A stretch of DNA of 64,000 nucleotides, taken from the NCBI GenBank assembly GCA_002269645.1, contig NIVC01000272.1, positions 310,001 through 374,000 of the forward strand, read 5' to 3'. Positions 12,111-64,000 of this stretch are shown here, in pieces (positions within the stretch are counted from its first letter, which is position 1; each line of letters begins with the position of its first letter). Under the pieces are notes generated by a model that did not search any database, was not told where the DNA came from, and was given only the letters and a program-made list of their open reading frames with translations. The translations under genes were made by a program, and so were the position numbers. This DNA is from Macrostomum lignano (lineage: Eukaryota).

Positions 12111-12111
12111 G

Positions 12112-42320: not shown

Positions 42321-42644
42321 TCATTCCTCATCCGGGGGCGCTCCGTTGGGGTTTCCCCAGACGAAGCGGCGATGCGTTTGTAGCGTAGGCCAATTGGTAG
42401 CAGGAGTGGGGGCGTAGTCGCCCCCGGGCCACTCACCTCGGGGGAGTTTTATGACGCCCCCTTCGGGGTCCGAAGTCCCCACTGCTACAGAGCGTCCCCC
42501 GTCGAGGTTTTCTGGAGTTACTTGTGTCTGGGCGTCCGCTTTGTAGCATGGTTGCCCCTGTACAGAGACATCTCTGAAGCGGAGGCCTGGTTGCCTTTGA
42601 TATGCATCAAGGGCCGTGTAGGGGCGCCATCCGCGGCCGGCCAT
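42321..42644 (-). CDS. Gypsy accessory ORF107 (unknown function), copy A1
   Basis: Intact 107-aa ATG ORF; homologs at 50723, 55954 and 60146. Confidence 0.8.
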   Translation of the reverse strand: MAGRGWRPYTALDAYQRQPGLRFRDVSVQGQPCYKADAQTQVTPENLDGGRSVAVGTSDPEGGVIKLPRGEWPGGDYAPTPATNWPTLQTHRRFVWGNPNGAPPDEE

Positions 42645-42936
42645 TACGCTGGAATGATTTTTTCTAAGTTAGATTCTGTGTGGCAATGTACAGCCTGAAC
42701 TATTTTAATGTACGCTAGTGGATTTCAGGGGCCTCCGCTGTTGTTGTTTATCGCCCTTTCCCTCTTGGGGGGGGGTTTGGGGTCCGCGGGCCGATCGATT
42801 TTTTATTAGGGGGGGTTCCCTCCACTGTGGCTGGTATAAGTTTTAATTGAGAGGGGGTCCCCGGCGCTGGCAAGTGTTGGATATAGAATTTGACTGCTTA
42901 TACTGTCTACGCTTTTACGGGATTGACGTTGGCACT

Positions 42937-43176
42937 ATGTCGCAGCATGCTGTGGAGCAATTGTCTAGCTTACTCTCAAGGATGGATCGGCGCTTATCGG
43001 CCGTGGAGGAGCACGTGAGGGAGCTATCCCATCAAGCTCTAGCGACGGATTCTGGGCTCCGAGCGCTCCGAGGTGTGCTGGGCGGAGTGGGCGGAAGCGG
43101 ATTTCTCCTGCTCATTGTCTGCGTTTTAATTGTGGCGTTTTGCTGCCGGTACCGCTATCGGCCCCTATCTGCTTAA
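42937..43176 (+). CDS. Antisense 79-aa coiled-coil / GGVGG / TM / Cys-basic small protein, copy A1
   Basis: ATG at 42937; homologs at 51334 and 60796. Confidence 0.8.
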   Translation: MSQHAVEQLSSLLSRMDRRLSAVEEHVRELSHQALATDSGLRALRGVLGGVGGSGFLLLIVCVLIVAFCCRYRYRPLSA

Positions 43177-43509
43177 TATGGGAACCTGCCAGTGAATTAA
43201 GTAACTATTATGCGAAAGGATTGACGAAAACATTTTTTATTGTGGAAATATATAAGCATTTTTAGTATTTGTTCTATTTAACTTTTATTTTTAAAAACTG
43301 CCGTATGCTACAGGTCTAAGCTATGATTTATTATGCGCAGAATCATGCGTGCGAACTAATGTTACTTTATACTACAAGCCATATGCGTGCTACTTTCTGG
43401 TGTTTCTGTCCATCTTTGATAGCACTACTACGTTATACTACTACTGTGTACGAATAATCAAAAATAAATTGTCAGGTGAAGCGTGAATTTGTCCGCTTAA
43501 TTGTTAAAT

Positions 43510-43972
43510 TTGGATTCCACATAGCTCTGATGTACTGGCAGAAGGGATCCTCCTTCTGTGCGTCCTTCAGTGCCTGGAGGCATGGTATTGGATGCTTGAT
43601 TGTGACATAGCTGATTGTCTGCCTCTGGTCTTCGTACAGCCTTGATAATGCATCCGGTACTGCGTGTTTGACCGAATCTCCGGGCACGTACTCAATTTGT
43701 ATCTGAAATTGCTGAAGGTATAGCAGCCATCTGAGAATCTGGTTACTGTGGAGAATTTTCCCGGTGAGCAGTCCTCTAAGCGGGGCGTGGTCTACTCGCA
43801 GTAGCGTGGGTATTTGTGCCGCGTATAGAAACTGTTCGAATGCTTTGAACGCATGGTATACTGCTAGAAGCTCTAAATTAGTGATAGCGGATCTCGTTTC
43901 GGCATCCCGCAGCTGCCTACTGGTGAAAGCTATCGGTCTTTCTTTCCCTTCTTCATCTATCTGTGACAGCAT
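43510..43972 (-). pseudogene. Gypsy pol RNase H fragment
   Basis: RPIAFTSRQL...ELLAVYHAFKAFEQFL...VDHAPL...RWLLYLQQF.IQIEYVPG...DALSR. Confidence 0.92.
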
Positions 43973-44329
43973 GGTTTCCTATATTATTCCCCTTTTTGAA
44001 ATCCTTGTGCAACGAGGATTATTCTCCTGGGTCTGAAATGAAATAGTTATAAATGTAGTTACAAATGTAAGTATAGTGTATGTATAGTGTAGTTATCTTA
44101 TACGACACACTAACCAACACTAGCGCTCTCCTAAAAGAAATATTGAATGCAAAGTCCAATTCTTCCTTAGCCTTGGCCATTTATCTCTGCAAAGTATATT
44201 TGACTGAATTCGCCGCAAGTCCATACGCATTAAAAACGAGTAAGCAAATTACCGCAATCTAATACGCAGATAATTCATCGCGAAAGAACGCAAACGATTG
44301 TAACAGCGCTTAAACAGATTCTCTGCGCC

Positions 44330-44645
44330 ACCACCACTAATCATGCTCGCTAGAAAATCCTTCAAACCACCACCACGATGCAGTTTAAAGTATAAATAAA
44401 CAAAACCCATAATTCACAGTGCAGCCTTGGTTCTTGAATAGCAAAACGCGAATATTCCCCATTTCCCCCTCCACAATTCCATATAAACCGACGTATTAAC
44501 TCACACGGATTTAACCCCAAGGAATCGAAATACCCCCCTTCCTAGAGCCCCTCCTACCCAACATAAAACCCCTCACCCATAACAAAACCCAATGAGAACC
44601 CGGCAAATTTAAAGTATCGGTATTCACGATCAGAAAATAATGCTT
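44330..44645 (-). pseudogene. Adenain-like cysteine protease fragment (Polinton PRO), frameshifted
   Basis: Manual translation: FLIVNTDTLNLPGSHWVLL / YFDSLGLNP / AIQEP...ILYFKLHRGGGLKDFL. Confidence 0.75.
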
Positions 44646-45240
44646 CCATTAAATGCAGTATTTTCGACTACCACCAGCAAAAGACGTGGCACTCCGCTCG
44701 GAAACAGATTTTCGTGCGTATGGCTCAACGACCCTTGCGGCATTGTGAACGTACCCAATGATAAATTGCGATGAGGGTACAAGGCACTATGGGTGTTACA
44801 GTTAAAGAACACGAAGGCACTTGGGTTTATGAATTGAAAGAGGGCGTTGTTTGAGCAGCTCCAAATTGGCATGAGCACGAAGCTCGCCCTTATATTTCTT
44901 TACCCTTAAGGGAATTGAAGTTTCTAGCAAACAAGGTGTACGGTAACATTTTGCCCCTATGGCACGTAGACTACTTTTAGAAGAAAATAAATATATAAAT
45001 AATGCAGCATAGCATGCAGCATATGCAACAATGGGTCTTCAAACCATGTGCATGGGCTCCAATCACACTGGCAGATGGCTGAACATACCGCAAACGAAGC
45101 TCCGCACTCTGAATCTCAACCTCGTAATCCTTTAACACTGCCTCACCAATCTGTGCGGCACTTAACACGAATTTGCTCTTTGCCGGTAGTAGCTTTATCC
45201 GCAAAGGCGTCTTTGACAACAAATACCGTGGCCCTGACAC
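44645..45240 (-). pseudogene. Polinton major capsid protein internal fragment, split by a solo LTR
   Basis: PRYLL...LRIKL...YEVEIQSAELRLRYV.PS..VIGAHAHGLKTH + SALYP...FTMPQG...ENLF...PRLLLVVVENTAFNGS. Confidence 0.8.
44794..45030. mobile_element. 237 bp solo LTR
   Basis: TGTTACA...TGCAACA termini; 5-bp TSD ATGGG (44789-44793, 45031-45035); removing it restores the capsid reading. Confidence 0.9.
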
Positions 45241-45244
45241 GTTC

Positions 45245-45510
45245 ATAACACGGGACACCAGTTTCGCGGCCAAACGTCCCCCCCACTTAGTTGTAGGATC
45301 CGTAGCAATCTCTCGAGCTCTTGCTACGAGTTGTTGATCGGCCTTTTACGCTCTGCCACGTCCGAGTGCTTCTCGTATGCCAGGTCGTGTAAGAGACACA
45401 ACTTATCGAGCCGATTCTTCCCAGTATCGCCCCGCGCCAAACGTTCTCTCAATCTGGTCTCGTGGCCGCAGAATTGGTAACCCCCCGGCAAATGAAGCTC
45501 CCCTGGGAGA
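45245..45510 (-). pseudogene. Parvovirus VP1u-type phospholipase A2 domain protein (Polinton/adintovirus PLA2), frameshifted
   Basis: ELHLPGGYQFCGH.TRLRERLARGD...NRLD..C..HDLAY, then ADQQL after a frameshift. Confidence 0.85.
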
Positions 45511-45699
45511 TGGTAAGCGCACTCGCTTCTTCTTCTGTCGGCCTTGTGTTCCCACCCCACTTAATTGTACTAAAAAAACAAACTGCATTTGCTTATACAC
45601 ACAGCGGTTAAATCCACGAGCAGTATATTGTATTAAAAACCACCACCAATTCCCACCACCGACCGACGGGCTCCGGGCGCGAGCAGCATCAGATGTTAG

Positions 45700-46194
45700 T
45701 GCTGCCCATGCCGCCCGTCTCGCGAACCGCCACCGGCTCCGGTTGTCGTGCCACACCCCCGGCAGCTGGCCCTCGCGAACTCGACCGACTTCTACCGGGG
45801 GCGTGACGCAGCGCTCCAGAATCAGTTGAACCACGCTGGTGGCACACAGTAGATAAACTTTCTCATCTGACGTGTTGTGCAGGATCACGCGGAGTTCCCC
45901 GGTATAGTTCGGGTCAACCACGCCACCGTGCACATTGAGGCCTGGGTTGGCCCAACTGGACCGGCTCGCTATCCGACCATAGGTGCCCGGCGGCAGCATC
46001 ACCCGGAGGCCGGTGCAAATAATGGCTGTGTCAAAGGCCTCCACAGTGCGGTCTTCGCACGTGGCTAGGTCATAGCCCACCGACCCGGCCGTAGCTCGCC
46101 GAGGCATCACTGCCCCGGCATCCGTGAGCACTATGCGCCGCAGGACCGTCGTGCAAGCGTCGGAGCTCATCGTGGCTGCGGGATCATAGTTCAT
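45700..46194 (-). pseudogene. dut: dUTPase with disrupted motif 5
   Basis: AGSVGYDL, TGLRVMLPPGTYGRIASRSS, GVVDPNYTGEL; the C-terminal RGxxGFGS motif is out of frame/degenerate. Confidence 0.88.
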
Positions 46195-46438
46195 CTTATG
46201 CTTAGCAGGACCGTCGTCCTCTAAAATAAGTCTAGTACTACCTTCGTAATCCACGTCCCAATAAAAAAAACTAAGCCTAGTACTAATCCCCTGCACTGCT
46301 ATCATTTGCCTAGAAAAACGAAAAAATACGAAGAGAAAAAAAGAAAGACGGATTCTTGCATATACATTCGATAATTGCGCGCATATATTGTGAGCAGAAA
46401 AACATAAACAGACAGAAAATAAAGACAGAGAAAACAAG

Positions 46439-48022
46439 TCAAGTCAACCGCCAATGACCAAATAGGAGGGATGAGTAGGGATCGTGCCAGGCTCGCTTCG
46501 TTTCGAAAAAGCTAAGCGCCTGCTTGCGCTGCTCAAGAAGATAAATCATCTGTCGTCGCGAGGTAATCGTCCGCATCGTTACAGGCCCCAAAACTCGATC
46601 CTTCAACACACCCAAAAATACATTGTGCTTCATACCTCTTACAATCGACTTCGACACGCCCTTGCAACGCACAATCTGACAGAGGCTTTCCTTTGCATAC
46701 ACCATTGAATAGTTTTTCGGACGTAGAAATGCAAACTCCAACGGTGTACAACCGGAAACTTCATCTTTCCAGGCCATTAACTTCCCTTTATACTTTGTTG
46801 TATAAAGCGGATGAGAAGGTGGATAATTACTAGTGTCTAACACACCGCACTCCACCAAGTCTTTAAATAATGTCTCCTGAGGACTCGTCTCCGGGTCGGC
46901 CATAACCAATGCCAGGATCAAACTATCCGTATCTCCACCAAGCACGCGGGCAGAAGCAAGCGACCGATGGCATTGAATCCTTGAATAGAAAAACTCGTAG
47001 ACAAATGTTTTCGCAAGGTCCAGAATAGCGCTACCAATCAGAATTGGCTTGTTTAGCAATACTCGACGAGGAGTCAAACTCACGCCCGCTAGACGATCTG
47101 TATACAGAATCACGTCCATAAATTCCTCTTTAGCGAAATACGTTTCCAACTTCTCGGCAGTAGTACACATGCGATAGCTGAGTCGGTCTCGAACTCGCTG
47201 CAGAAACTTGCCGTACACAGCATTGTTCAATAGTTTAAAGAAATCTCGATCGAAATCGCTAGTCGCCTCAGACCGCGGACGAATATTATGTTCAATGTAT
47301 TCCTGTAGGATGGGACCTTCTACGAATTCGAGAACACGATTAATACGCGTCACGCACATGCCTAACTCGAGGTAAAGACGCAATGCTCGATGATGTACAA
47401 TGTACCCTGTTTTATGCGTAAAAGAGCCAATTAGTTTCCTTGTCGGAGAAGTGAATCGTTTTACGTCCTCGTATACCTCCGCAGTCCTCTTCCTTGGATC
47501 AAGCTGGCGTTGCAGACAAACCCAATCCTGCTTCATATGCTCGATTAAATAGGCACTATCAATTCTTTCATGGCCAATAGCCAGAGGTAGATCGGCAGTT
47601 GAATCGTGCAAAAACTTTGGGTAGTACAGATCGACATTCAATAACGTCCCTCGTCCATTCGAGCAATAGCTAGACAACCAAGCCAAAAACTTGCTCGACT
47701 TGTTCGGATTTTCCAACTCAGCTGCCTCATCATCAACTGATAGATTTTCAATCACTTTACGGGGCAACCAACGATAGGCCTTATACGGTAGTGCCTGCGC
47801 CATACAACTGGCATAAAGAGAATTAGCATCAAGGTAGGCCAAGTGAGTGCCATACGGTGCATTCCGCCGTAGTTCTCTTAAATCGTCGTCGTCGTCGTCC
47901 AGCCGACGACGGCATTCTTCTACCATTGGATTGTTTGCCGTAGTAAGATGGCGAGTGCCGAAACTGAATCCACCTCGAATCGAAGCTTCAACCTCGGAGT
48001 ACATACGAGCGTCTGTAAACAA
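46439..48022 (-). pseudogene. polB: Family B DNA polymerase of Polinton type, C-terminal half
   Basis: SIRGG, YLDANSLY, FFKLLNNAVYGK, GGDTDSL, KDE and RPKNYS...KGV motifs; truncated at the LTR C terminus at 48024. Confidence 0.93.
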
Positions 48023-48023
48023 C

Positions 48024-49735
48024 TGAAGAGTTGATTCGGGAGGTGATCAGTCTCCCGAAAACTCCCACTTCCAGACACTTAAGCCTGGGAACAAAATAAA
48101 GTGATCACTTACTGTTGCGGGCTCCTCTTCTGTGTAGTGCGGGTTCTCCGAGCTCGTTTCTTCAAATCCTCTTCTTCTCCGGAGGAATCTTCTTGAAGTC
48201 TTGAATCGGCCGAATGAGAGCGTGACGATCAAATCAGGCGACGTCGCAGTATTTCTCGAATGCAAATCAATATAGGCCTTAAGCTCAGTAATCAATATCA
48301 ACGATGCGCCTTGTAATAAAATCTACTTTCTGTAACAACAACGAGGTCCTCCAAGAAGGGCGTCTTCTTCTAGAAATAACGGAATCGGAGTCGTGTGCTC
48401 CTATCGGTTAATCTAGGATAACCAAAATCAATCAATCGATAATCCTCTAGGGGTATCGGAATCGGTCCGCAGATCCTATCCAATCCCTTAGGAAAATGGG
48501 AGGCCTCAAATTCAATGAACTCAGTCAAATCGACTGGACAGTAGCGGCCGGCAATAAATCGCTCTCAAAATCAATAACAAAGGCTCAAGCAACGGCTCAC
48601 CAATTGGTTTACTTTTCTCTCAGAGATGTAGCCTCGCTTAGCTGTTCCAGCAAGCTCCAAGATCTTTAGAGGCTGCTCCGAGTCTGAGATTTTTAGCTCG
48701 GATTTTGGCTTGTATTTATAGGAAAAATTGTTGAGAGACAGCTTATTTTTAGTAGGTGACAGTTTCGCGCTTTGGAAATTTGACCCCTATGGAATACATT
48801 AGCTTTGAGCGCCGATACCATATTCGGAGTTCTAAATTTAAATGTTGCAAAAGATGGTCACTTGTTGTTTTCGTGGTCTTTAAAAATAGAGTATGACAAT
48901 TTGCAATTTTTGTAACATTCGAGTTTTTCGCATCTTCATGTTGCTACTTATAGTAGTCTACTTTGTATCTTATTTGGAGATCTCTACAATATCTCCCTTT
49001 TTTACGAAAAATTCGTCCCGAATTTATCACGGGTGATTTTAGTTGTACATGAAGAATTAAACAGGTCCACGGTTTATAAGAATTTAATACTTATTGTTTA
49101 TTTGCGAAGTTACTGTGTATATGCAGATTAAACATGGTGGCCAGCACGATATAGTGTATTCTGTAACAGCACAGTAATGAGAATAGTGACCGAGCAATAA
49201 GAAAAACAGTAATTTATTGTTTTTATCTACAATCGTGTTGGAGCCTATGGGGTATGGGGACTGGGGTTAGAGATGTTCGGCTAGGAACGGTGGAAGAGTC
49301 TTTGCACCCTGACCGTTAATACTGCTATGGGGTAAATGAGGAATTGGAGTTGGTGGTGGTCGTGGGATTCGGCGGCTTCTAATAGGTGATAGTAGACATC
49401 TTGTGGGGTTAATAGGGTTTCGGTCAGGGTGCAGCGCCGGGCCGTTTGCAGGAGACTCCGCCGTGCTTCATGTAGTTTGGTCGGTAGTGGCCAGTCTTGT
49501 ACGTTGGCGGAGATCTCCAGGGCGGTGAGGGCTTCGAGATCGTGGAGTGTGAGCTCCGGTTGGAAGTCCTCCCGTCGGACGATTTCTGCGGCCGGCGCTT
49601 CCAAGGAATTTGTACAGGTTGGGCAGTATGTTATGCCCCGCCGCCCCAGCCTCTGCAGGCAGCTAAAACAGCTCCAGTGCCTGGAGTTGCACAGCTTTAT
49701 TTGCGGGTCGTCCCCTCAGAGGCTGCATGTAGGTC
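48024..49735 (-). mobile_element. Gypsy-like lineage C, copy 1: RING ORF remnant, PPT, 965 bp LTR (48024-48988)
   Basis: TGTAGAG...CTCTTCA termini on the minus strand; PPT AAAAAAGGGAGA; TATAAATA at 48713-48720; same ends at 56442-56806. Confidence 0.8.
49281..49730 (-). pseudogene. 5'-truncated RING-family accessory gene of lineage C
   Basis: In-frame upstream PQIKLCNSRHWSCFSC...CPTC, plus a C-terminal domain homologous to the ORFs at 57077 and 58016. Confidence 0.8.
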
Positions 49736-50722
49736 TTCTCTCTCGGGCTTCGGTTATGTTCCTCTCTCGTAGGCGTCTAGCGGTCTCGTTGGATTATTCT
49801 GCGTCTTCGAAGCCTAAGGGGAGCCTACAACGAGGAGATCGCTACTTGGCTGATTCTGACTCGTGCCTGTAGCACAAATAACGAAAATGAGTCTCTTTAG
49901 ATTTATTGGCGAATTGCACAAGGCTTCTAGTTGGGAAGCTTAACTCTTTCCTTCTAGGTGCCCATTTCGGGGCCGAGGCCGTGTCTATTTTATAGATCAT
50001 TTGATACACGTCATCCCCCGCCGCTGATTAGCAACGGCGGGGTGCCAAAACAGACGCAGCAACATTAGATTAGCGCGTTGCTACGGGGCGAGAGAGATAA
50101 TCTGCTATCGGTTAATTGGTCGCATCAGGCGATGGTTAAAGGTCAGTTCAGGGTTCATCGTTCGAGTCGATTCGCACGTCAGACCCCTCGTGCGTCCCTC
50201 GGTGAGTCGTCCTCTTATTCCCTGGGGTCGTTCGTCACCGCTGACCTTGGCCTGTTGACCATTGCTTTATCTCGCCCGCCAGTCGGGCTTTGTGTCGTAT
50301 TGCTTCTCCTGGCACCGCGCCGACTGGCTCAGCCTGGTACCTCGGCCGATTTGATATCATCTGGTTTTAGTCTGAAATCTTGGGGGAAAGTCAGAGTTAG
50401 TTTCTTATCTATAGCTTGTTTCACTTTCTTGCCGTTCTTTAATTTCTCTCACTTAGGTGTCTTATCTTTAAATTGAACTTTCGCCCCTTGCTTTTTTTGC
50501 TTCTTACTTTGCCCTTTAGCGAACTCTTATTTGTCCCAACTTTCATAATTTCTAATTCCTATATTATTCCCCCTTTTTTTGAAATCCTTGTGCAACGAGG
50601 ATTAATCTCCTGAATCTGAAATGAAATAGCGCAAGAATATGAACGATATAGGGTTAGAAATTAATATTTGTCACGTAATATCTTGATTTAATGTAGGTTA
50701 TTTAGAATTTAAGTTAGCACGA

Positions 50723-51046
50723 TCAGTTGTTATTTGGGGGTGCTTTGTTGGGGTTGCGCCAGACGAACATGCGGTGCGTCTGGAGCGTTGGCCATTCGTA
50801 GTCTGGGGCGGGGACGTAGTCGCCCCCAGGCCATTCTCTTCTGGGGAGTCTAATGACTCCCCCTTCGGGGTCCGATGTTCCAGCGGCCACTGAGCGTCCC
50901 CCATCAATAATTTCCGGAGTCGCCTGGGTTTGGGCGTCTGCCTTGTAACAGGGCCGCCCATGTATGTTGACGTCAGTAAAACGGGTGCCTGGTCGCCTCT
51001 GATAAGCATCGAGTGCTGTATAGGCACGCCACCCGTGGTCAGCCAT
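50723..51046 (-). CDS. Gypsy accessory ORF107, copy A2
   Basis: Intact 107 aa, ~75% identical to copy A1. Confidence 0.8.
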   Translation of the reverse strand: MADHGWRAYTALDAYQRRPGTRFTDVNIHGRPCYKADAQTQATPEIIDGGRSVAAGTSDPEGGVIRLPRREWPGGDYVPAPDYEWPTLQTHRMFVWRNPNKAPPNNN

Positions 51047-51333
51047 TGTGCTGGAATGATTTTTAACTGTATTGGTTCTTATTTGGCAATGTACATCCTT
51101 AGCTACAATGTACGCGGTTGGGTTTTACGGGCCTTCGCTGAGGTTGTTTACCGCTCTTGCCCCTACTGGGGGTTTTGGGGTCCGCGGACTGATCGATTTT
51201 TTATTAGGGGGGTTCCCTCCACTGGGACTGATATAAGTTTTAATTGAGAGGGAGTCCCCGGCGCTGGCGAGTGTTGGATATAGAATTTGACTGCTTATAC
51301 TGTCTACGCTTTTACGGGATTGACGTTGGCACT

Positions 51334-51573
51334 ATGTCGCAGCATGCTGTGGAGCAATTGTCTAGCTTACTCTCAAGGATGGATCGGCGCTTATTGGCCG
51401 TGGAGGAGCGCGTGAGGGAGCTATCCCATCAAGCTCTAGCGACGGATTCTGGGCTCCGAGCGCTCCGAGGTGTGCTGGGCGGAGTAGGCGGAGGCGGATT
51501 TCTCCTGCTCGTTGTCTGCGTTTTAATTGTGGCGTTTTGCTGCCGGTACCGCTATCGGCCCCTATCTGCTTAA
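51334..51573 (+). CDS. Antisense 79-aa coiled-coil/TM small protein, copy A2
   Basis: 4 aa differences from copy A1. Confidence 0.8.
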   Translation: MSQHAVEQLSSLLSRMDRRLLAVEERVRELSHQALATDSGLRALRGVLGGVGGGGFLLLVVCVLIVAFCCRYRYRPLSA

Positions 51574-52259
51574 TATGGGAACCTGCCAGTGAATTAAGTA
51601 ACTATTATGCGAAAGGATTGACGAAAACATTTTTTATTGTGGAAATATATAAGCATTTTTAGTATTTGTTCTATTTAACTTTTCTTTTTTAAAACTGCCG
51701 TATGCTACAGGTCTAAGCTATGATTTATTATGCGCAGAATCATGCGTGCGAACTAATGTTACTTTATACTACAAGCCATATGCGTGCTACTTTCTGGTGT
51801 TTCTGTCCATCTTTGATAGCACTACTACGTTATACTACTACTGTGTACGAATAATCAAAAATAAATTGTCAGGTGAAGCGTGAATTTGTCCGCTTAATTG
51901 TTAAATTTGGATTATTTGGTTGGGTTTTATGGGTGTTTTCTTACCTACTGATGACACTGCTTTGACGACCATTCATCTTGAATCTCCGGGTCTTGAAACA
52001 GCGGTCTGACGATCGTCTCCATTCGGGGGAAGTCTCCTCGCCGATATAGACATCGTCCAAATAGTCAAGCTGAGCGTCGTACATCTGTTGTGTGTGATAT
52101 AAGTCAGTGCTTTAATTATTTTAATCAGGTATGTATGGGTAATTAATAGTGAGTGTTTCTACTGTTAAGTGCAGCGCATACCAACTGAGTACATATACGA
52201 GTATAAAATGAATCTTTTTGGTCTTTGTACTCTCCCCCCCCTTCCCATGACATCAATTG

Positions 52260-54344
52260 TCACGGAAGGTGGGTCTTGCTCCTTAGGTTGTATTTCTTCC
52301 TGGCCGTGTCCGCCGGCGCTCCATCTTCTACTTGGATGCCGACATCCATCGAGAACTTCTGTTTCTGCTGTCTTTGCAGGCGGTTGGGATCACACGGCCG
52401 GAGGTCGGGGAGGAAGACTTGCGCTTCTGGTGAGGCCACCGGTTTCAGCCTGTCCACATGTACCTGGAAGGCTGTTTGCGGTGGTTCATCTGTCTTTTTT
52501 ATCAGCACCGAAGTGGCACTGTTACATTTAACCACCTCGTATGGTCCAGAAAATTTAGATTGATGTTTTGCTTGTCTCATTGGATTTTGGAGCATTATCC
52601 TGCTTCCTACTGTTATCGTGGTCGGAACTCTTCTGTTGTTTGCCCTTGTTGTGTTTTTCTTTTGAGCTTCTTGTAGGTGGTGACGGGCTATTTCTCTGGC
52701 TAGGGTTATAGCCTCTTGCATTCGTTCCGCGTATGCGGGTTCGTCTGCGTATCGTACGAATTGCAGTTGTGTTGTTAATTCTGTGGGCATTAGTGGCTTC
52801 CGGGCGAACACTAACTCGAATGGTGAGTATTTAGAGGACGCTTGTTTGGCTGTGTTTTAAGCGTGGATTATAGCTTGTAGGTATTGGTGCCAATTGTGAG
52901 GGTTCTCCGCCGTGTAATGTCGTAGCATATTGTGGAGAGTGGAGTGAAGGCGTTCCACATGGTTTGCTCGAGGGTTGTAAGGTGACGTTAGAATGTGCTG
53001 TATCCCTAGAATATTTAGGGCATCTGTGAGTAGTGTCGCCGTGAAATTGGTGATGTTATCCGTTGAGAGTTCTACGGGTATCCCGAAGGTACAGAACACT
53101 TGGAAGAGTGTTTCGGCCGTGGTTTCGGCTTTCAAGTCCGGTATTGGGAACGCTAAGGCAAACTTGGAGAAGCAGCACGAAACGGTTAAAAATGTGTTAC
53201 CGACTCGTTCCTTATCCTCGCCGGTGTCATAGGGCCGACCAGATCCACTGACAGTTTGTCCATCGGTTTTAGTGGTATCTCCGACATCTGAATGAGGCCT
53301 TGATGCATCCTGCCGGACTTGCTTTTGGCACAGTCCATACAGTTGTCGCAGAATGCTTGTATATCTCGGACCATGGAGATCCAGAAGTAATGTCGCCGGA
53401 TCCTCTCCAAGGTCTTCTTGACATCTAGATGTGCGGCCAAGGGTAGGGCGTGCAGTGAGTAGCAAATTGTGTCGCGATATTTAAATGGCAGTACTATCTG
53501 CTGCGTTTTTTCTGCCGTTCTGTGGATAATGCCCAGAATTTCAGCATGATCTGTTAGGTGCCGTTCAATATGGCGCTTCTATTTTGAGTCCAAATCTTCT
53601 CCGCCAGGTTGCTCGTTCCACATAGCTCTGATGTACTGGCAGAATGGATCCTCCTTCTGTGCGTCCTTCAGTGCCTGGAGGCATGGTATTGGATGCTTGA
53701 TTGTGTCGGTTTGGCAAATTTGCATTTCAGCAACCTGAGTTTCATTCCGTGCTTAGTGAGTGCTGATAGCGTGTCTTTTATCGTGTTGAGGTGGTCTTCA
53801 AAGGTCTCATTAAACACTAATAGGTCGTCCACGTAGGTGGAGACTCAATGTATGCCCTGTAAGATTATGCTGACTGCCCTTGATAGCGCCGCAGGCGAAG
53901 ATTGTAACCCCATGGGTGCTCTAGTGAACACATAGGTTTGTCCATCCGGGGTTTAGATGCCGCAGTATTTCTGGCTTTCCTCCTCTAGGGCTACTTGGAA
54001 GAATGCTTGGGCCATATCCAACGTGGTGAAGTACATGGAGCCTTTGAGCTTAGCTAGCAGGTCGGGGATTCTGGGCATGGACTGTCTTTCAGGCACTAGA
54101 ATATAATGAGGTCCCTAAAGTCGACGCAGAGACGGTAAACAGGGTTAGCATTGGGCGATTCTGCTTTCTTTTTTACCAGTAAGATTGGCGAGATGTATGG
54201 AGTTGCCGCTTTCTTTATTATCCCTTGGGCTTCCATCCTATCGATGGTTTTCTGTAGTTCTCCCATTAATTGGTATGGGATGGGATATCTTTTGTAAAGC
54301 TTTATCTCTATGTTGGGCTTGATGTGTAGCTCGTGTTTCGCCAC
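52260..54344 (-). pseudogene. Gypsy pol (RT and integrase) with stops, frameshifts and an RNase H deletion at ~53703
   Basis: Motifs as listed for copy A2; ends RKKYNLRSKTHLP, no chromodomain seen. Confidence 0.9.
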
Positions 54345-54349
54345 TTCTT

Positions 54350-56441
54350 TTTATTAGATTCGGATATTTAAAGTGACTTGACAGTTGATCACTTATCTTA
54401 AAGCTGCTTCTGTCTGCCCTTCTAATAGCTATCTAGGGGTTCCATTGTTCTTTTCTGCCTCGCCCTTCAATGCGCCTGGGCATTTCATAAATTTATAGCT
54501 ATCTTCTAACTTAGGGCAAAAGTTCAGATTTCTAACTCATATGATTGCCCCTTTTTTGAAATCCTTGTGCTAACAAGAATTTGGTTCCTCTAGGCGGTGA
54601 CTAAGGCGTGGTGCCAGTTCCTATTTCATCAAATATAAGCAGTTAAAAATCTGCAAAGGGTATACGCGCTGTCTCTGGGGCCTTTGAGTTTTTGTTCTCA
54701 CTTTCGTAAGATAGATGTCTTGCGGTCTAAGGTTTGTATAGCTCTAACTTCTTCAATCAGGCCGTCGGAGAAAACCGTATAAACTGACGGGATCTCCTAG
54801 TATCTAAGCTGAGTTTGACTCTTTCTAGGATTTGCTCTGCGCGACAATTAAGACAAATAACTGTATTAAAGACTTAGATTTGTGCCAACTGGATAATCCA
54901 GAGACTAATTCAAAGGGAGCAATTCGAGATCGAAAATGCGCAAGAAAAACGAAGCGCCGGTCCAGTTTGAGATGGGCGTCTATTTATACCAATTAGCATT
55001 TTTGGCCCCCCCGCCGCCGGTGATGTGTCTCGCGAGGTTAGCAACGGCGGGGAGTTTTAAGCAATAACAATCTGGGACTCAGTCCCCTAGTTGTACATGG
55101 ATTTAGTTAGTTCTAGTAGGTTGCTAAGTGTGAAGGTTGGAGATTATTCGGGGTTTCGCAAATCTATGTGTTGAGTTGGATAAAATCTAGGATAGAAAGG
55201 TTATATAAAACGAGCTTAATTTTCCGTCTCTTAACTCTGTCCATGGATGATTAAACAGCCCTCTCTCTCTCCCTCGGTTGTCAACTACTTCGGGTTGATC
55301 TCGCCTTCTTCGGCCTCTTCAGGTTGGATTGGAGTCCGTGGGTGGGCCGCACATTTTCCTCCCTCTGGGTGCGCCAGAAATCTGCTGCGTGCCGCGTGCT
55401 GCGTTGTTCCCTAAGTCGGGCTGCTACTTAATTTACTTCTCCGGCCGGTTTGAGTGCCGTTGTTCCTGCGGCGGGGTGTTGCTGCTCACTGGAATGGGAG
55501 GGGCTTAATTAGAATCGGTCCTTCTTATTTGTCTTGATTTATTGCCTTATTGCTGCTTCTGTTTGCCCTTCTAATAGCTATCTATGGGTACCATTGTGCT
55601 CTTCTGCCTCGCCCTTTGCTGCGCCTGGACTTTTCATAAATTTCTATCTATCTACTAACTTAAGGTAAAACTTCAGATTTCTAACTCTAATATAATTCCC
55701 CCTTTTTTTCGAAATCCTTGTGCGAACAAGGATTTGGGTTCTTTATGCTGGGACTAAATCGCGTTGCCGGTGCGTATTTCATCAAATATAAGAGGTTAGA
55801 AATCTGCAAAAGGTAGTGAACGTTGCATTAGGGGTAGAAGAGGATGTGCTAGATAAGTGGTTGTGTCAGAGGATGGGTATTCTTCGAGCAAAAGTTTCAA
55901 GCGTATAGTTTGTTTTGTATATGTTGCGCCGAGGCCATTTAGTACTATTGATATTAGTCCTTGACCGGGCGGTCGCCTATCTTCCATAGATATAGGCGGT
56001 AGCCCTGCGGTGAGGGCCGTGGCCTAATGGTGACGGCGGCCTCATACGGGCCCCCGTCTCATGGAGTCTTTCTTGGGGCCAGGATCACCCCCCAGTCGTT
56101 ATAGTCGGCGGCCGTTTGTTTAGCCATGGAGTGGCCGCCATCGATATCGTACTCGGCGACCTGTGTTTGTGCGTCTTTCTTGACGCACTTCCGAAGGTGG
56201 AGGTCTCCGTCCACAAAAGCCTGGCCAGGTCGCCGGGTGTAAGCCTTTTCTGGTGTGTAGGCGGCCATCTTCTTTGTGCGGAGTGTGTGCTGGAAAGAAA
56301 TAAGCGAGAGTATTCATTGATTATCGCGTCTGGGGGTTTGGCGTGTGTTCTCAGCTGCCCATCGTATTCCTTAGTGGGACTACTGTACATTGGTTCTATC
56401 CTCTGCGTACATGGGGTAGCGGGTGCGGCGGAACGTGCGGG
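54350..56441 (-). mobile_element. Gypsy lineage B pieces: ORF107 region, PPT, LTR (~54661-55690), second PPT and partial LTR (54350-54660)
   Basis: Homologous to 58880-60640; TATAAATA at 54981-54988. Confidence 0.8.
55954..56268 (-). pseudogene. ORF107 homolog B1 with one in-frame TGA (Trp to stop)
   Basis: Reads through as ...RKTP*DGGPYEAAVTIRPRPSPQGYRLYLWK. Confidence 0.8.
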
Positions 56442-57076
56442 TGAAGAGTTTGATCGGGTGGTGATCAGTCACCCGAAAACTTCCACTTTCAGACACTTAA
56501 GCCTGGGAAGCCTCAAAACCGTTTTTTATGAGTTCACGAAAGGAATTTTATTATTTGACAGGTGGGGTTTTTGAATAGAAAAGGGTGAGACTTGGGTTAC
56601 ATTCAGGTTAACATTTACCATATTTGGAAGTTCTAAAAATAGATGTCGAGAACCGGTTTTTTCGAACAATAGCATAGTCACTCGCTGTTTGCGTGATATG
56701 ACTGGTATTACTAAAAATAGAGTATGACACATAGCTATTTTTAAATTTGTGTTCATAATTTTATGTTACTACTTTTAGTAGGCTACTGTGTTTGGAGATC
56801 TCTACAGTATCTCCCTTTTTTACGAAAAATTCGTCTCGAATTTCAATCGAAATTAAGTAAAAGCGGACAGAGGTTTTCATTTATTGCAGTGGCAAGTAAG
56901 TATAGAACGTACAGAACAATGAAAAGTGGTGATGAGTATATAGTCGTAGATATAGTAGAGGTTAAGTAAGGTAGTGTACAGAACACGCAAGAGGCACTAA
57001 ACAAGAATAAGCAAGAGCAATAATTAGTGAAGTCAATACGTCGCAGAATAGAAGCAGTACATAACGAGTGCGGTAG

Positions 57077-57676
57077 TTAGGCAATGAAAATGTCGTCAAG
57101 AACGGATTTCAGCCGTATTATCAACGCCGCCAGAGGCCCAAACATGATCTGCAGTGGAGTATATGCAGTGGACTCGGTGCGGTTCAGGATGGCGAGGTAG
57201 GCCTCCATCTCGGTCGTAATTGTCGCATCTAGTAGTACGTCCCGGCCGATCCTGAGCATATCGTCCCGGGCCCTGGCTTGGGCCATCGTAACGGGCCATG
57301 ACTTGATGGCGCGCGCCAATTCCGGCGTAGTCAGTCGCGGGATAGAGTCAGCATCGAGCCATAGAGCAGGCTCATACGGGATCGTGGCCGTAATGGCAGT
57401 GGTGGTCGAAAGAAAATTCCAACCAAATTGAACACAGTAGCCGATAGCCCGACAAGCCAGACTGCGCAAGCAGCTGTTGCAGACCCAATGGCCGTCGGAG
57501 CACAACTTCACCTGCGGTAGCCGTCCACACAGGACACACCACACTCTGTCCCGTCGACATATGGAGCAATGTTGGAGTTCCTCCCTGGCGGCGCAGGTAC
57601 GGCAGGCCATATGGCCCCAGGCGCAGGTGGAGACCATGGCGTGGGCCGGATCAAGGCAAATAGGGCACTCAGACAT
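57077..57676 (-). CDS. Double RING-like zinc finger protein (199 aa), putative E3 ligase
   Basis: CPIC...CAWGHMACRTC...CSIC and CVLC...CSDGHWVCNSC. Confidence 0.8.
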   Translation of the reverse strand: MSECPICLDPAHAMVSTCAWGHMACRTCAAREELQHCSICRRDRVWCVLCGRLPQVKLCSDGHWVCNSCLRSLACRAIGYCVQFGWNFLSTTTAITATIPYEPALWLDADSIPRLTTPELARAIKSWPVTMAQARARDDMLRIGRDVLLDATITTEMEAYLAILNRTESTAYTPLQIMFGPLAALIIRLKSVLDDIFIA

Positions 57677-58015
57677 GATGATATAAATAGAGGCAAAAGC
57701 AAAACAATGGAAGATGGAACTCTTAGGAATTACAGAAAGATGTGTGAAGGCATAAATCGTAAGTGAATTTCGCGTGTATATATATATGGATACGTATCGC
57801 GTTTTAATTGGCTTGTAGTCACTAAGTTTTAATTGGTGAAAAATAGCGCATTCTCTTCTTGGGCCGGCCTGTGTTGGTCTCGAATATTGTTCGGGGTTGG
57901 CAGGTAGTAGGATGGTATGTTAGAAGAAGACGTAAGTGTAAGCATTTAAATTTTATGGAGCTATGTTCCTAGTATACTAAGGTTTTAATTGTGAGCGTCC
58001 GATTTGTTGTGTTAG

Positions 58016-58600
58016 TTAGAATATGTCGCGTGTCAGTTCTCGTGTTTTTTGTGTGGGGCGTGCCATGGGCCATATCAGATGTTGTATTGCCACGTATTCC
58101 GTGCATTCTGTCGCATAGAGGAAGTCAAGGTAGATTTCCTCGGTTGTGGTGTTGTCCGGGTGTATGACACAATGGCGCATTAGGTCGAACAAATACTCTC
58201 TGTGTTTCTGACGGTTGAACGGTATCGGCCATGTTTTTATTGTCAGTGCTAGCGCCCGTGCGGTCATGTGGTCCATAGCTTCTTTAGTTAGCTGTATCGT
58301 CGGCAGGTCGTCTCGTGTTTGGTCCCAGAATTCCGTCGTGATGGGTGTCGCACAAGTGATGCAATTTGGACTGTTGGTACGCCGGATATTGTTTGCACAT
58401 TCGCGGCACACCCAATGTTGATTGTGGCATAGTTTTATTTGAGGTGTCGTGGCACATACTTGGCACCGGGTGGCTGGCGCTCGACATAACGGGAATTTAT
58501 CGATCGCATCTGTCGTACAGCAGTGATAGCAAAATTGATGGCCGTTATGACAGTAAACGAATGGCTCGATGTCCTCTTCGCAGCAGACGATACATTCCAT
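58016..58600 (-). CDS. Double RING-like zinc finger protein (194 aa), putative E3 ligase
   Basis: CIVC...CHNGHQFCYHC and CQVC...CHNQHWVCREC...CITC. Confidence 0.8.
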   Translation of the reverse strand: MECIVCCEEDIEPFVYCHNGHQFCYHCCTTDAIDKFPLCRAPATRCQVCATTPQIKLCHNQHWVCRECANNIRRTNSPNCITCATPITTEFWDQTRDDLPTIQLTKEAMDHMTARALALTIKTWPIPFNRQKHREYLFDLMRHCVIHPDNTTTEEIYLDFLYATECTEYVAIQHLIWPMARPTQKTRELTRDIF

Positions 58601-60145
58601 AACTGCAATTTTAGGAGCATTATAATTATATCGCCTTATAAGATATAATTATAATTATATCTTCATCGTACATATCGCCCTGCCAATTTGTCAATTCACT
58701 GTGCTTTAATAACATAGTTAGATCCGCATGTCGCTTAATAAGTATGGGGAGTACAGCGCAATGAAATGGGAGGCATGGTAATTCGCATGTTGATAGGTAT
58801 CGTAAAAGACGTTGCTGACGACGTTTTAACGGGAAGAGTATTAATTGGTGTCTATTATGATGTGCGTACTATATGCGTCTTTCTCTGGGGCTATACGCGT
58901 CTTCCTCTGGGGCCTTTGAGTTCGTGTTCTCACTTTCCTAAGATAGATGTCTAGCGGTCTAAGGTTCTTACAGCTCTTAGTCTCTCCTATCAGGCCGTCA
59001 AAGGAGACCGTATAAACTGACGGGATCTCCTAGTATCTAATCTGAGTTGGAGTCTCTCTAAAATTTGCTCTATGTCACAGTTAAGGCAAATAATCGATTT
59101 GAGACTCGGATTTCTGCCAACTGGATAATCCAGAAACTAATTCAAATGGAGCAATTCAAGATCGAAAAACTGCGCAGGAAAAACGAAGCGCCGCTCCAGT
59201 TTGAGATGAGCGTCTATTTGTACCAATTAGCATTTTTGGCCTCCCCGCCGCCGGTGGGGTGTCTTCGCTTTGTTAGCAACGGCGGGGGGTTTTGAGCAAT
59301 AACAAACTGGGACTCGGTCCCCTAATTGTACATGAATTTAGTTAGTTCTAATAGGTTGCTAAGTGTGAAGGTTAGAGATTATTCGGGCTTTCGCAAATCT
59401 ATGTGTTGAGTTGTATAAAATTTGGGATAGAAAGATTATAGAAAAAGTGCTTAGTTTTCCGTCTCTAAACTCTGTCCATGAATGATTAAACAGTTCTCTG
59501 TTTCTCTCGGTTGTCAGGCAGCTTGGGGTTGATCTCGCCTTCTTGGGCAGCTTCGGGTTGGGTAGGAGTCTCTAAGTGGGCCTTACGTTTTCTCCCTCAG
59601 GGTGCGCCAGAAGATGCCGCGTGCCGCGTTGTTCTCTAAGTCAGGCCGCTGCTCAGTTTGCTTTTCCCGGCCGGTTTAGTCGCCATTGTGCCTGCGGCGG
59701 GGTGACGCTACTAACTGGAATGGAAATAGGCTTTATTAGATTCGGCTATTTACATTGACTTGACAGTTGATTAATTATCTTAAAGCTGCTTCTGTTTGCT
59801 CTTCTAATAGCTATCTAGGGGTTCCATTGTACTCTTCTGCCTCGCCCTTCACTGCGCCTGGGCTTTTCATAAATTTCTACCTATATTCTAACTTAGGGTC
59901 AAAACTTCAGATTTTTAACTCTTATATGATTCCCCTTTTTTCAAAATCCTTGTGCTAACAAGGATTTGATCAATCGACATCAGGGCTAAACGACATTGCA
60001 GGTACTTAAATTATCAAATATAAGACTTTAAAAATCTGTAGACGAGTCAAACGTCTCGGGACGTAGATAGTTAAAGGTGTAAAGAGGCGAAACCTGGGAA
60101 ATTAATTGAGGGAAAACAGTTCACAGTCGTATCTAGGAGCCGCAT

Positions 60146-60466
60146 TTAGTCATCTTCAAATTGAACGTTGCCGCTTCTGGCCCATAGATACTGACGATAT
60201 CCCTGCAGTGTGGGCCAGGGTCGAATGGTAATGGAGGCCTTGTAGTCGCCTCCCCTCCACGGTATCTCCGTGGGGGTCAACTCGCGTCCCCACTAGGCGT
60301 CGTTGTCAACGGTTTGGGTGGCCACTGAATGGCCCCCATCTATGTCACTCTCGGCGACCTGTGTTTGCGCATCCTTTTTGATGCACTTGTGGACGTGGAG
60401 ATTTACGTCCACAAAGGCTTCGCCGGGTCGCCGGGCATAAGCTTCTTTGGGTGAGTAAGTGGCCAT
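60146..60466 (-). pseudogene. ORF107 homolog B2 with one in-frame TAG
   Basis: MATYSPKEAYARRPGEAFVD...KKDAQTQVAESDIDGGHSVATQTVDNDA*WG...PWRGGDY...WPTLQGYRQYLW (manual translation; absent from the ORF track). Confidence 0.8.
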
Positions 60467-60795
60467 GGGAATGCTCTGAAATTAAGCAAGAGTGTGCTAT
60501 TGATTTTCCGTGTGGCGGTTTTAGCGTGTATCGTCCTTGGCCCAAAGCTTCGCTTAGCGGTTCGGCTGTACATTAGATCTATCCCCTGCGTACATGGGGT
60601 GGTGGGTGGGCGAGGCGCGCGGGGTGAGGTTTTAAAATCTGAAGTTGGGGTCCCGCTCGCTCCTAACGAAAGAGGGGGCTCTTTCTTTCCGCGGCTGGTG
60701 ATGGTTCCTTTTCTATTTAAACTCCGGCGCAAGGGAGTGGGGCCCTCCGGTGAACTATTCAATCGATTCTTGTCCCGCGACTATACTGCTCAATA

Positions 60796-61059
60796 ATGTC
60801 TGAATTCACGGTAAGGCGCTTGATGCGTCTAGTTAACGATCTAAAGGAGCGGTTCCGGGCCGTGGAGGGCCGCTCTGTGAGCCTGGAACACCGCCTCCTT
60901 CATCTCGAAGCTCGAGTGGCTGCTCAGGGTGGCGGTTTGGATACTCTTCGCAGCTGGCTGGGCGGAGTTGGGGGCAGCGGCCTTCTACTGTTTCTGGTGC
61001 TGGTATTAGTGCTGTTCTGCTATCTGCGTCGCCAACGCTACCAGGGCCTACCTGCCTAG
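60796..61059 (+). CDS. Antisense 87-aa coiled-coil/TM small protein, lineage B
   Basis: Shares LGGVGGSG-TM-FC-basic tail and position with the lineage A copies. Confidence 0.8.
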   Translation: MSEFTVRRLMRLVNDLKERFRAVEGRSVSLEHRLLHLEARVAAQGGGLDTLRSWLGGVGGSGLLLFLVLVLVLFCYLRRQRYQGLPA

Positions 61060-62094
61060 TAAGTGAAGTGATTTCATAAGACTATTGGATAACAATATAT
61101 TCAGGGATTCTATTTTGTATGTCATAAATATGACTATCAGCCGGCTAAAATAAGTGTCGGAGGGCGTGGAATATCACGGCGTTGAGAGTAAAGCGTAAAG
61201 CGTCTAGTTAGTAGATAAAATTCGGGTACAAAAATTATCAGGATAAGCAATATTTGCGGATACAGTTTGTTTCCAGGTTAATGTGGTTAGTGTTAGATTA
61301 TATAGCGTTGTAGCTGGCTTCAAAAAATTCACTTTCGTTTGGTCTAGTCTTGTCTCAAGAATAGGCCGCCCTGCTGTGAGGCTGCATTGAACAAAGGAGC
61401 GTACCTGTGGGTGAAGGTGCCTCAGGGATGAGGCGAATTAGTATCTCACCAATTCGCTACAACCCGAGAGCAGGGGTTCATCCCTTGTATTATCCTTTTT
61501 GTTCCCTTGCAACCGGGCCTTCCTAGCACCTCAAGGGTCCAGGTTGGGGCCTTCTGCTGCTTTCAACGCTGTGAAAAGGTGGTGCCATTGTAGGTTGGCC
61601 GGTGAATACGCAATCGTGGCTATCGATTGCTGTTCTTTGGGTTTGATTTCGATGCCGGTATACGCTCGTAATTTAAGGTGTTAAGTAGATAAGTGATAAG
61701 CATGTCGGCTTGGAGTGATAGTGTGCTGGTCGGTCCACGAGGATGGATTAGGGTTGTCGTCACCCTGCTATTCCATACTATGATACGGAAACAAGAGAAC
61801 GCATCTGTGTCGTCGTAGAGGAAGAAGAGCGTGGTGTTGAAGTTCAAGATAGAATAGTCAGAGAGTAGCCAGCGTGGGTATTTAGGATCTGATAGGATGC
61901 GTCGCGTAGTGAGGTGTGTGACGATGTTAGTGGGTATTAGTGGCATGTCAAGCATCTGCTGGTGAATGTCAAACAGTTTCATTTCATCATATCGCGCCGG
62001 CTTGCTTTGAACTACCGTCTGTGCCGCCAGAGCGGTTTGGAATCGCTCTGCGAGTGTTTTAGCCTGGTGGAAATCGTTGCTCGCCGATGTTGTA

Positions 62095-63350: not shown

Positions 63351-63620
63351 ATTTTTTTCTCTAAAATAAAAACATTTTTGAGGGTGACCACCCTGATAGA
63401 AAAGTTGAACTGTTTCTCCATCTTATAAGTAGCGTTAGGTTTATGAAGCTGGAAATTAAACCTCATAACATTCACATTCACATTCACATCCGCAATTTTG
63501 CAAACCAAGCATTGTGCAGTGTCATGATGGCTTTGACAATGTCAGACTTGCTTACAGAATTTTCATGCTCACAATAATCACGATCATCACAATCAGGACA
63601 GCCCTCTCCTGCCTTAATTG

Positions 63621-63938
63621 TTATACCTTTGTCTCTTGCAATCTTTGCAATTCAAGCTGGTGGGCTCTATCATTCCCAGCTTTAACAGCAGTTGCTACAC
63701 CTCCAGCTACACCACCTGCGGCACTTACAGCGCCTGAAATGATCGGGATAAGAGCTGCTAATGGTAGGATTCCTCCTGACTTTTCATCTGTGATGCTGTG
63801 TCTTTGCTCATTACACTGAACTATTTGCCGCATGGGATCGATTTTAACTTTGACACCTTTAACTGATATAAGACCTGGTTTCTTTGATTCAATGATTTTA
63901 TTGAGTTTATTGATGGTTCTGGTTTAAACCGATGTCAT
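63621..63938 (-). pseudogene. Adenovirus pX/mu-like small core protein of a Polinton/adintovirus
   Basis: KSGGILPLAALIPIISGAVSAAGGVAGG resembles adenoviral pX (RGG.LP.LIP.I); premature TAA near the upstream ATG. Confidence 0.65.
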
Positions 63939-64000
63939 TTTTTATTTTAATATTTTAATTAATTTCTGTGTCGGCTGGTATCACTAGGAGTTCAGCTCTA

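Follow-up and report, generated by a model that had tools for sequence, protein, structure and literature searches.

A stretch of 64,000 nucleotides from the flatworm Macrostomum lignano (contig NIVC01000272.1, positions 310,001 to 374,000; hereafter the window) contained remains of gypsy-type long terminal repeat (LTR) elements on its minus strand and, opposite them, three short open reading frames (ORFs) on its plus strand. These ORFs belong to a gene for a small membrane protein on which selection acted over the history of its family, and complete elements carrying it are endogenous retroviruses with a gag-env-pol gene order. The gene lies antisense to the element in a modular region between pol and the polypurine tract (PPT). 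Its product is predicted to form a membrane-anchored trimer, possibly directed at a partner in the host membrane rather than at cell fusion.

A selected antisense gene for a small membrane protein

The three antisense ORFs had been proposed in a first-pass annotation made from the letters of the window, and they were real: each ran on the plus strand from ATG to stop, giving 79, 79 and 87 amino acids (aa; Table 1). A heptad region, the motif LGGVGG[S/G]G, a hydrophobic helix, a cysteine and a basic tail were present in all three. Searches of the own genome with three members returned 29 places matching the ORF, a lower bound and not a number of insertions, since some were duplicates of one insertion. 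The frame was intact from ATG to stop in 21 places and frameshifted, truncated or decayed in the other 8. A 98% identical duplicate of window copy 2 and its neighbours was seen on C2421 (L023, L024). The earlier remark that the frame survives where pol is destroyed was true of the window copies and carries little weight, as these are truncated or rearranged and 8 of 29 places were broken.

For codon analysis, each distinct protein was represented by a single sequence, which left 13 of the 21 intact copies; the alignment had 79 codons free of gaps. The ratio of non-synonymous to synonymous rates (omega) was 0.185 under the Goldman-Yang (GY) codon model, far from a value near 1 that the first-pass annotation had named as speaking against its reading, and log likelihood (lnL) was -2045.9 with omega free versus -2124.1 at omega = 1 (best of four kappa values). 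Pairs moderately diverged within a lineage gave omega of 0.08-0.30, and pairs between lineages gave 0.40-0.54 and were saturated. Very close pairs carried no usable information (5 changes and an omega of 1.50 between the two lineage-A copies of the window; 0.37 and 0.14 for others). Because the two lineage-A window copies differed by 4 non-synonymous changes and 1 synonymous change, the window copies alone show no selection after insertion. Alleles of lineage B were deeply separated, with synonymous divergence (dS) of 1.15-3.2 and non-synonymous divergence (dN) of 0.22-0.29 between them. Third codon positions were the most variable (0.59 vs 0.44 and 0.28), the five other frames were stopped in 12-13 of 13 sequences, and when the pol-to-LTR region was shuffled 1000 times, a comparable hydrophobic antisense ORF arose twice. 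The membrane ORF is a real gene and selection acted over the history of its family, so that the core of the earlier annotation, a selected antisense gene for a small membrane protein in a flatworm gypsy-type element, stands.

Predicted structure and topology

Members of the protein family were 79-90 aa long with a single hydrophobic stretch (17-residue hydropathy of 2.8-3.1 in 13 of 13). A heptad domain of 45-59 residues preceded the uncharged stretch, with hydrophobic residues at positions 9, 13, 16, 20, 23, 27, 30, 34, 37, 41, 44 and 48, and the 7-residue insertion of lineage B amounted to exactly one heptad and preserved the register. All 13 sequences contained the RhxxhE motif, which favours parallel trimeric coiled coils (PMC5940361). 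The LGGVGG[S/G]G motif, described earlier as invariant, was so in the three window copies; across the family it gave way to a looser glycine zipper, (G/S)xxxGxxx(G/S), kept in 13 of 13. The uncharged stretch spanned 25-28 residues in 12 of 13 sequences and 18 in B2. It was followed in all 13 by a tail of 9-15 residues with a net charge of +3 and a bordering cysteine. Residue 2 was serine throughout, and no sequence had a cysteine before the helix.

Modelling of three copies gave a parallel homotrimer with a score of 0.62, the best of 3 controls reaching 0.00, in agreement with the oligomeric coiled coil expected by the first-pass annotation. Runs agreed in at least 91% of contacts, with a predicted local distance difference test (pLDDT) value of at least 78 and an inter-chain contact between residues 19 and 24. 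Among solved pairs, the mark applied to this score was reached by 21 of 30 from microbes and 17 of 29 from eukaryotes; among single chains, by 0 of 23 and 0 of 30, respectively. This calibration was made for two copies and is applied here to three. A single chain was modelled as one long helix (pLDDT 71.8, predicted template modelling score 0.33). The protein is thus predicted to be a single-pass membrane protein forming a parallel homotrimer.

The helix of tail-anchored proteins emerges from the ribosome only at termination, and long or structured N-terminal tails are poorly translocated (PMC8287540, PMC10155758). As only 9-15 residues lie behind the helix, tail-anchored insertion is the likelier mode: we lean slightly towards a post-translationally inserted protein with its rod in the cytosol. 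An N-out topology, like that of reovirus FAST (fusion-associated small transmembrane) proteins, falls a little short of even odds.

Complete elements encode an envelope glycoprotein

The first-pass annotation took the elements to be env-less, which proved false for the family. Three LTR-bounded elements, on C1189 (L038/L037), C1878 (L042/L041) and C4628 (L036/L035), each combined an intact antisense ORF with an env gene, in the order gag, hydrophobic leader, glycoprotein, transmembrane (TM) segment and pol. They measured 13.8, 13.8 and 12.6 kb, respectively, with paired LTR identities of 99.9%, 99.9% and 99.5%; LTRs of complete elements were 843 and about 1040 nt long. In stretches around other copies, gag contained zinc knuckles and env was followed by protease, reverse transcriptase (RT), RNase H and integrase; the RT, RNase H and integrase domains and the gypsy order of pol were recognized by Pfam. 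The env product, about 600 residues long, was a cysteine-containing glycoprotein in which a furin-like basic site and a TM helix were recognized. It matched PF24664 (Monjiviricetes fusion) at 33.7 and 29.2 bits (cut-off 27), 3 of 4 aligned env regions gave a match, and an env search gave 74 matches among 73 of 283 scored candidates. A single-sequence fold of Env had a pLDDT of 33.8, and no sequence match to it was found in the PDB.

Truncation or rearrangement has removed gag, env and the greater part of pol from the window copies, and neither gag nor env was found in the 64-kb window. The lineage-B window copy nevertheless aligned with the 3' 3.2 kb of the complete element on C1189 at 89.7% identity. 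For lineage A, integrase grouped with B and D elements in a tree built from own-genome elements only, whose other main branches were also env-bearing, and a 182-nt RT piece of the window was 88% identical to an env-bearing element on C13, 79% to B and 71% to D. The element family is an envelope-carrying, gag-env-pol, gypsy-type endogenous retrovirus. Its LTRs start and end with TATA and not with TG...CA (L038:3340-3400; L036:7330-7390), and its primer-binding site is apparently similar to the 3' end of tRNA-Glu.

Modular 3' region

The position of the membrane gene between pol and the PPT was as first annotated, and so was its antisense orientation, found in every element where pol or LTR sets the direction. 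It was not alone there. Up to three genes occupied the region: a sense ORF3 on the pol side, the antisense membrane gene, and a sense ORF5 on the LTR side, so that the membrane gene stands tail-to-tail with ORF3 and head-to-head with ORF5. ORF3 (229-260 aa; in relatives at L037:3296-4078 and L035:6069-6830) had an omega of 0.228 over 5 sequences, and ORF5 (about 105 aa, range 105-113) one of 0.196 over 9 sequences. ORF3 matched no Pfam family above cut-off, and profile searches for homologues of ORF5 and ORF3 yielded 0 matches among 687 and 3207 candidates, respectively. Weaker ORF3 matches were also seen behind unrelated pol genes (L096-L099). ORF5 also occurred at L046:2490-2831. The ORF5 sequences keep a K.DAQTQ motif, and the end of pol carried words of the type V[GS][IV]Q[VA][ED]; both presumably resemble binding motifs of the dynein light chain LC8. 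An AG acceptor-like site stood immediately before the ORF5 ATG in the copies inspected.

Sliding identity revealed a patchwork of relationships. The lineage-B window copy was 92-100% identical to the C1189 element over LTR, ORF5 and ORF3, whereas identity was 62-69% in the membrane gene together with its 100 upstream nt. Conversely, copies on C1567 and C13 were 97-99% identical to C1189 over the membrane gene and 64-81% over the ORF5 region, and the two lineage-A window copies were 97-100% identical over the former and 72-79% over the latter. The exchanged membrane-gene alleles differed by 35% in protein on near-identical backbones. Judging from these sequence comparisons, the 3' accessory genes are swapped between backbones as cassettes.

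The composition of the region varied further among relatives. No ORF5 match was obtained in lineage D, and its env-bearing sister L046 had ORF3 and ORF5 and no match to the membrane gene. In more distant env-bearing families the slot contained RING genes (L052, L053, L062) or, in L056, an antisense TM ORF that is unrelated. The latter, in a distant gag-env-pol family (family E; L056:5805-6059, C247), encoded 84 aa with a cysteine run and had 8 full-length, stop-free matches among 9 close places. It was considered as a relative of the membrane gene and is unrelated as far as seen (profile probability of 4.8% over 5 columns); antisense membrane genes may have two separate origins. A cysteine-rich, secreted-looking ORF in L052 was dropped, since the stretch that L052 has in common with the 6 sister copies compared does not include it.

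Expression signals

Candidate signals for separate transcription of the membrane gene, a TATA-like site upstream and a poly(A) signal downstream, were located in lineage A (Table 1). Public contigs came from runs presumed to be RNA, gave no strand and were not counted as evidence. For lineage A, two studies had contigs beginning at 51270, behind the TATA-like site, and one ended at 51871, just past AATAAA; a variant at 51269 could explain the start, and the contig of a third run extended to 51228. In lineage B1, the contig of one run spanned the ORF into ORF3, two runs had no contig over the ORF, and the control run covered it.

Searches for homologues and origin

Profile search of a 5.8-billion set gave 1 match among 7987 scored candidates. 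Its source label is a hypothetical protein of Macrostomum lignano, and it matches lineage D in length and identity. A 1.84-billion representative set returned the same protein and 5 long multi-stretch proteins; the 3 of these that were inspected were all heptad repeats, one being adhesin-like, and these matches were set aside as compositional, not homologous. Viral and metagenome contigs gave no confirmed homologue, the best ESM Atlas value (0.80) was below the useful range, and Pfam returned nothing above cut-off for the 13 members. In the sets searched, we thus found no homologue of the membrane gene outside the genome.

Descent from the Env stem-TM region was considered and rejected. Pairwise scores of 72-77 in lineage B were reached by 0 of 300 shuffles, but the likeness was absent in lineages A, C and D; at profile level the probability was 0.3-0.9%, and 29 of 100 and 4 of 100 shuffles scored equally high.

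Other features of the window

Table 1. Membrane-gene copies, associated signals and remains of their elements, in window coordinates
Feature	Position	Strand	Remarks
Antisense membrane-protein ORF, lineage A copy 1	42937..43176	+	79 aa, ATG to stop
Antisense membrane-protein ORF, lineage A copy 2	51334..51573	+	79 aa; 95% identity to copy 1
Antisense membrane-protein ORF, lineage B	60796..61059	+	87 aa; one heptad more than lineage A
ORF5, lineage A copy 1	42321..42644	-	sense, 107 aa, head-to-head with membrane ORF, before PPT
ORF5, lineage A copy 2	50723..51046	-	allele divergent from that of copy 1 (75% aa identity)
ORF5, lineage B copy	60146..60466	-	broken by an internal stop
Further ORF5	55984-56268	-	
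ORF3 remains, lineage B copy	61531..62141	-	sense, after pol; frameshifted and 5'-truncated; relatives 229-260 aa
TATA-like TATAAG, candidate internal antisense promoter	42835..42840	+	102 nt before ATG; in 4/4 lineage-A sequences
AATAAA, candidate poly(A) signal	43463..43468	+	286 nt after stop; 277-302 nt in 4/4 lineage-A sequences
AATAAA, equivalent site in lineage A copy 2	51860-51865		
3' LTR, lineage A copy 1	41294..42129	-	PPT ahead at about 42132-42144
pol fragment (RNase H region), rearranged copy 1	43472..43972	-	
Second PPT-like stretch beside copy 1 pol fragment	43976-44046		
3' LTR, lineage A copy 2	49727..50560	-	inner edge approximate
Broken pol, copy 2	52260..54347	-	part of RT, integrase; frameshifts and one stop
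3' LTR, lineage B copy	58892..59927	-	97% identity to LTR of env-bearing element on C1189

At the start of lineage A copy 1, a second PPT-containing stretch was fused to the RNase H fragment (43976-44046 compared with 50556-50629). The same joint occurred in contigs of two public runs, so this rearrangement is not confined to the assembly. Two RING-finger ORFs lay on the minus strand at 57077-57676 and 58016-58600 (PF21362, one at 38.5 bits, above cut-off) and resembled those found after pol in another env-bearing family (L052, L053, L055, L062, L079-L081). Between the LTR elements, minus-strand pieces at 44900-48050 and 62350-64000 encoded a protein-primed DNA polymerase B (PF03175) and a dUTPase (PF00692), and are presumably Polinton- or adintovirus-like. 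Tandem repeats with units of 12, 40, 21/22 and 20 nt occupied 5100-6300, 12000-13900, 23100-24100 and 38850-39750, respectively.

Proposed function of the antisense gene

Our preferred explanation, to which we give a probability of roughly 0.45, is a conserved antisense accessory gene whose membrane-anchored trimer would act on a host membrane partner, in the manner of retroviral accessory proteins, rather than fuse cells. The modelled trimer would comprise six to seven heptads, locked by the Arg-Glu bridge of the RhxxhE motif and continued by the glycine-zipper membrane helix. Transcription from an internal promoter of its own, head-to-head with ORF5, would make production independent of genomic RNA, and the partner might be a host defence or trafficking protein. 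A protein working structurally with Gag or Env should move together with them, but the gene is swapped and lost independently and sisters carry RING genes in its slot, which argues for a host-directed role; likewise, the exchange of alleles without regard to the Gag/Env backbone points to a host partner. Since Env already supplies entry, the gene need not be a fusogen.

Several observations weigh against this explanation. An alternative cause of cassette swapping could be evasion of silencing by small RNAs, in which case the swapping would be uninformative on the partner of the protein. The link of lineage A with Env comes from the integrase tree and the 182-nt RT piece shared with C13, and no lineage-A element with both env and the membrane ORF was found in the own genome. 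The TATA-like and poly(A) signals were clear only in lineage A, other lineages offering T/A-rich candidates, and 3 of 13 sequences (B2, B5, B6) had no AATAAA or ATTAAA within 420 nt. Of the 7 eukaryote pairs that lacked an older solved relative, only 1 reached the structural mark, and the pass of the trimer model may stem from likeness to solved designed or natural trimers, to which many weak sequence matches were obtained. The net +3 tail and adjacent cysteine, present in 13 of 13, also fit a C-cytosolic, palmitoylated topology of the FAST type.

Other roles were judged against the same evidence. An assembly or budding cofactor, that is, a matrix-like or Env-chaperoning trimer matching a three-fold Env and linking membrane to capsid, is unlikely. 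Class III fusion proteins are trimers, the antisense product is itself a predicted trimer, and the joining of Gag to the Env leader in gag-env-pol elements makes assembly unusual; such a cofactor would hardly tolerate the exchange of alleles 35% apart in protein on near-identical backbones, its gene should not be absent from the env-bearing sister L046 and the RING families, and its antisense orientation means that it is not produced from genomic RNA. A viroporin, in which glycine-zipper helices would line a pore for ions or small molecules, has poorer prospects still. Small hydrophobic viral proteins of such outline often form pores, and the glycine zipper, the uncharged stretch (25 residues in 12 of 13 sequences, 18 in B2) and the basic tail would suit one, but the coiled coil has the motif of a trimer, and a pore would have to be lined by three single helices, a small number for such a structure. 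That the ORF has no functional product and is a by-product of constraint on the sense strand or the RNA can be practically dismissed: no homologue was found elsewhere, but omega was 0.185, third positions were the most variable and the other frames were closed.

A superinfection-exclusion or identity cassette is rather improbable. Expressed from integrated, even truncated, copies, it would, depending on the allele, keep elements from entering or replicating, adding to a complex-retrovirus anatomy with interchangeable 3' cassettes a function exerted not through Env itself, by analogy with the small membrane exclusion genes of phages. Deep alleles (the lineage-B divergences given above) swapped en bloc with the upstream 100 nt, the candidate promoter and poly(A) signal, and survival of the gene in truncated copies (21 of 29 intact) would all be expected of it; ORF5 is swapped likewise, however, so the pattern is not special to the membrane gene, and youth of the copies can explain their survival. 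A second, FAST-like fusogen, N-out at the plasma membrane and mediating cell-to-cell transfer alongside Env, is improbable to much the same degree. The resemblance to FAST proteins drawn by the first-pass annotation extends to small size, a single pass, and the basic patch and cysteine directly after the helix (13 of 13); p10 FAST proteins use a palmitoylated dicysteine and TM glycines (PMC12945298), and FAST sequences share no identity, so missing homologues are no objection. It does not extend to Gly2, ectodomain cysteine, endodomain or forward orientation: residue 2 was serine in 13 of 13, no cysteine preceded the helix, 45-59 residues stood in place of the 20-40 of FAST ectodomains, the 9-15 aa tail is too short for an amphipathic helix and disordered tail (PMC7830690), and insect sORF2-like genes are all forward-oriented (10.1101/2025.03.14.642691). 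Complete elements moreover already have Env, so the premise of a cell-to-cell transmission protein in place of a missing envelope is not supported; a role in cell-to-cell spread may still exist but has no specific support left. As a caution, a small TM protein with a basic patch in truncated copies is insufficient to call an Env-independent fusogen.

Comparison with known systems

The element type is already known, as are antisense ORFs at this position in plants and varied 3' cargo in rotifers. GAG-ENV-POL errantiviruses of Platyhelminthes, Nematoda and Bryozoa, with Env of the herpes simplex virus (HSV)/glycoprotein B (gB) type (PMC13524379), share with the elements described here the gene order, LTRs and a viral fusion glycoprotein. 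The supplementary table of that paper contains one Macrostomum lignano element (10.6 kb, 863-nt LTRs, 16 copies), which, judging from its sizes, probably represents a sister family. The main text of the paper has 0 mentions each of 'antisense' and 'accessory'; the elements here have antisense and accessory 3' genes. Within the literature covered, with subscription journals, repeat databases and bioRxiv supplements outside its scope, we found neither the membrane gene nor such a cassette described for an animal gag-env-pol element.

sORF2 of the Drosophila MDG1 group and reovirus FAST proteins (10.1101/2025.03.14.642691; PMC7830690) are, like the membrane protein, short and single-pass with a basic patch after the helix. 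Here, in contrast, Env is present, the gene is antisense, myristoylation glycine and cystine noose are lacking, the N-terminal domain is a coiled coil, and there is almost no endodomain. The plant Ty3/gypsy elements Retand, Grande (gene23) and RIRE2 have, as the elements here do, an antisense ORF in the interval from pol to the 3' LTR (PMC11963269, PMC7264820), and Grande has its own antisense promoter (PMC7264820, PMC11963269). The plant products are nuclear or TRP28-domain proteins, whereas here a membrane protein is encoded by an animal element with Env; no Pfam match to the TRP28 domain was found in the 13 members. LTR elements of bdelloid rotifers (PMC5408684), invertebrate and gypsy-type as here, have a diverse 3' cargo in which TM and coiled-coil ORFs occur, but in the form of a single ORF3 in the env slot (in Vesta4 a TM protein of 220-230 aa), against up to three genes beyond Env, one of them antisense, in the present family.

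The usual picture of an invertebrate gypsy-type element is gag-pol, to which env may be added. The family described here has Env and up to three extra genes under purifying selection, each with an omega of about 0.2, one on the opposite strand, and with old alleles shuffled among backbones, which is the anatomy of a complex retrovirus. It points to a conflict between host and element at the membrane, in a flatworm amenable to RNA interference (RNAi) and transgenesis. As a working analogy, accessory genes of complex retroviruses (Vpu, Nef and the antisense HBZ and ASP, some of them named in PMC7264820) are likewise small, non-structural and located 3' of pol, some being antisense or membrane-bound; they belong to another virus family, and no sequence relation to the membrane gene was found or expected.

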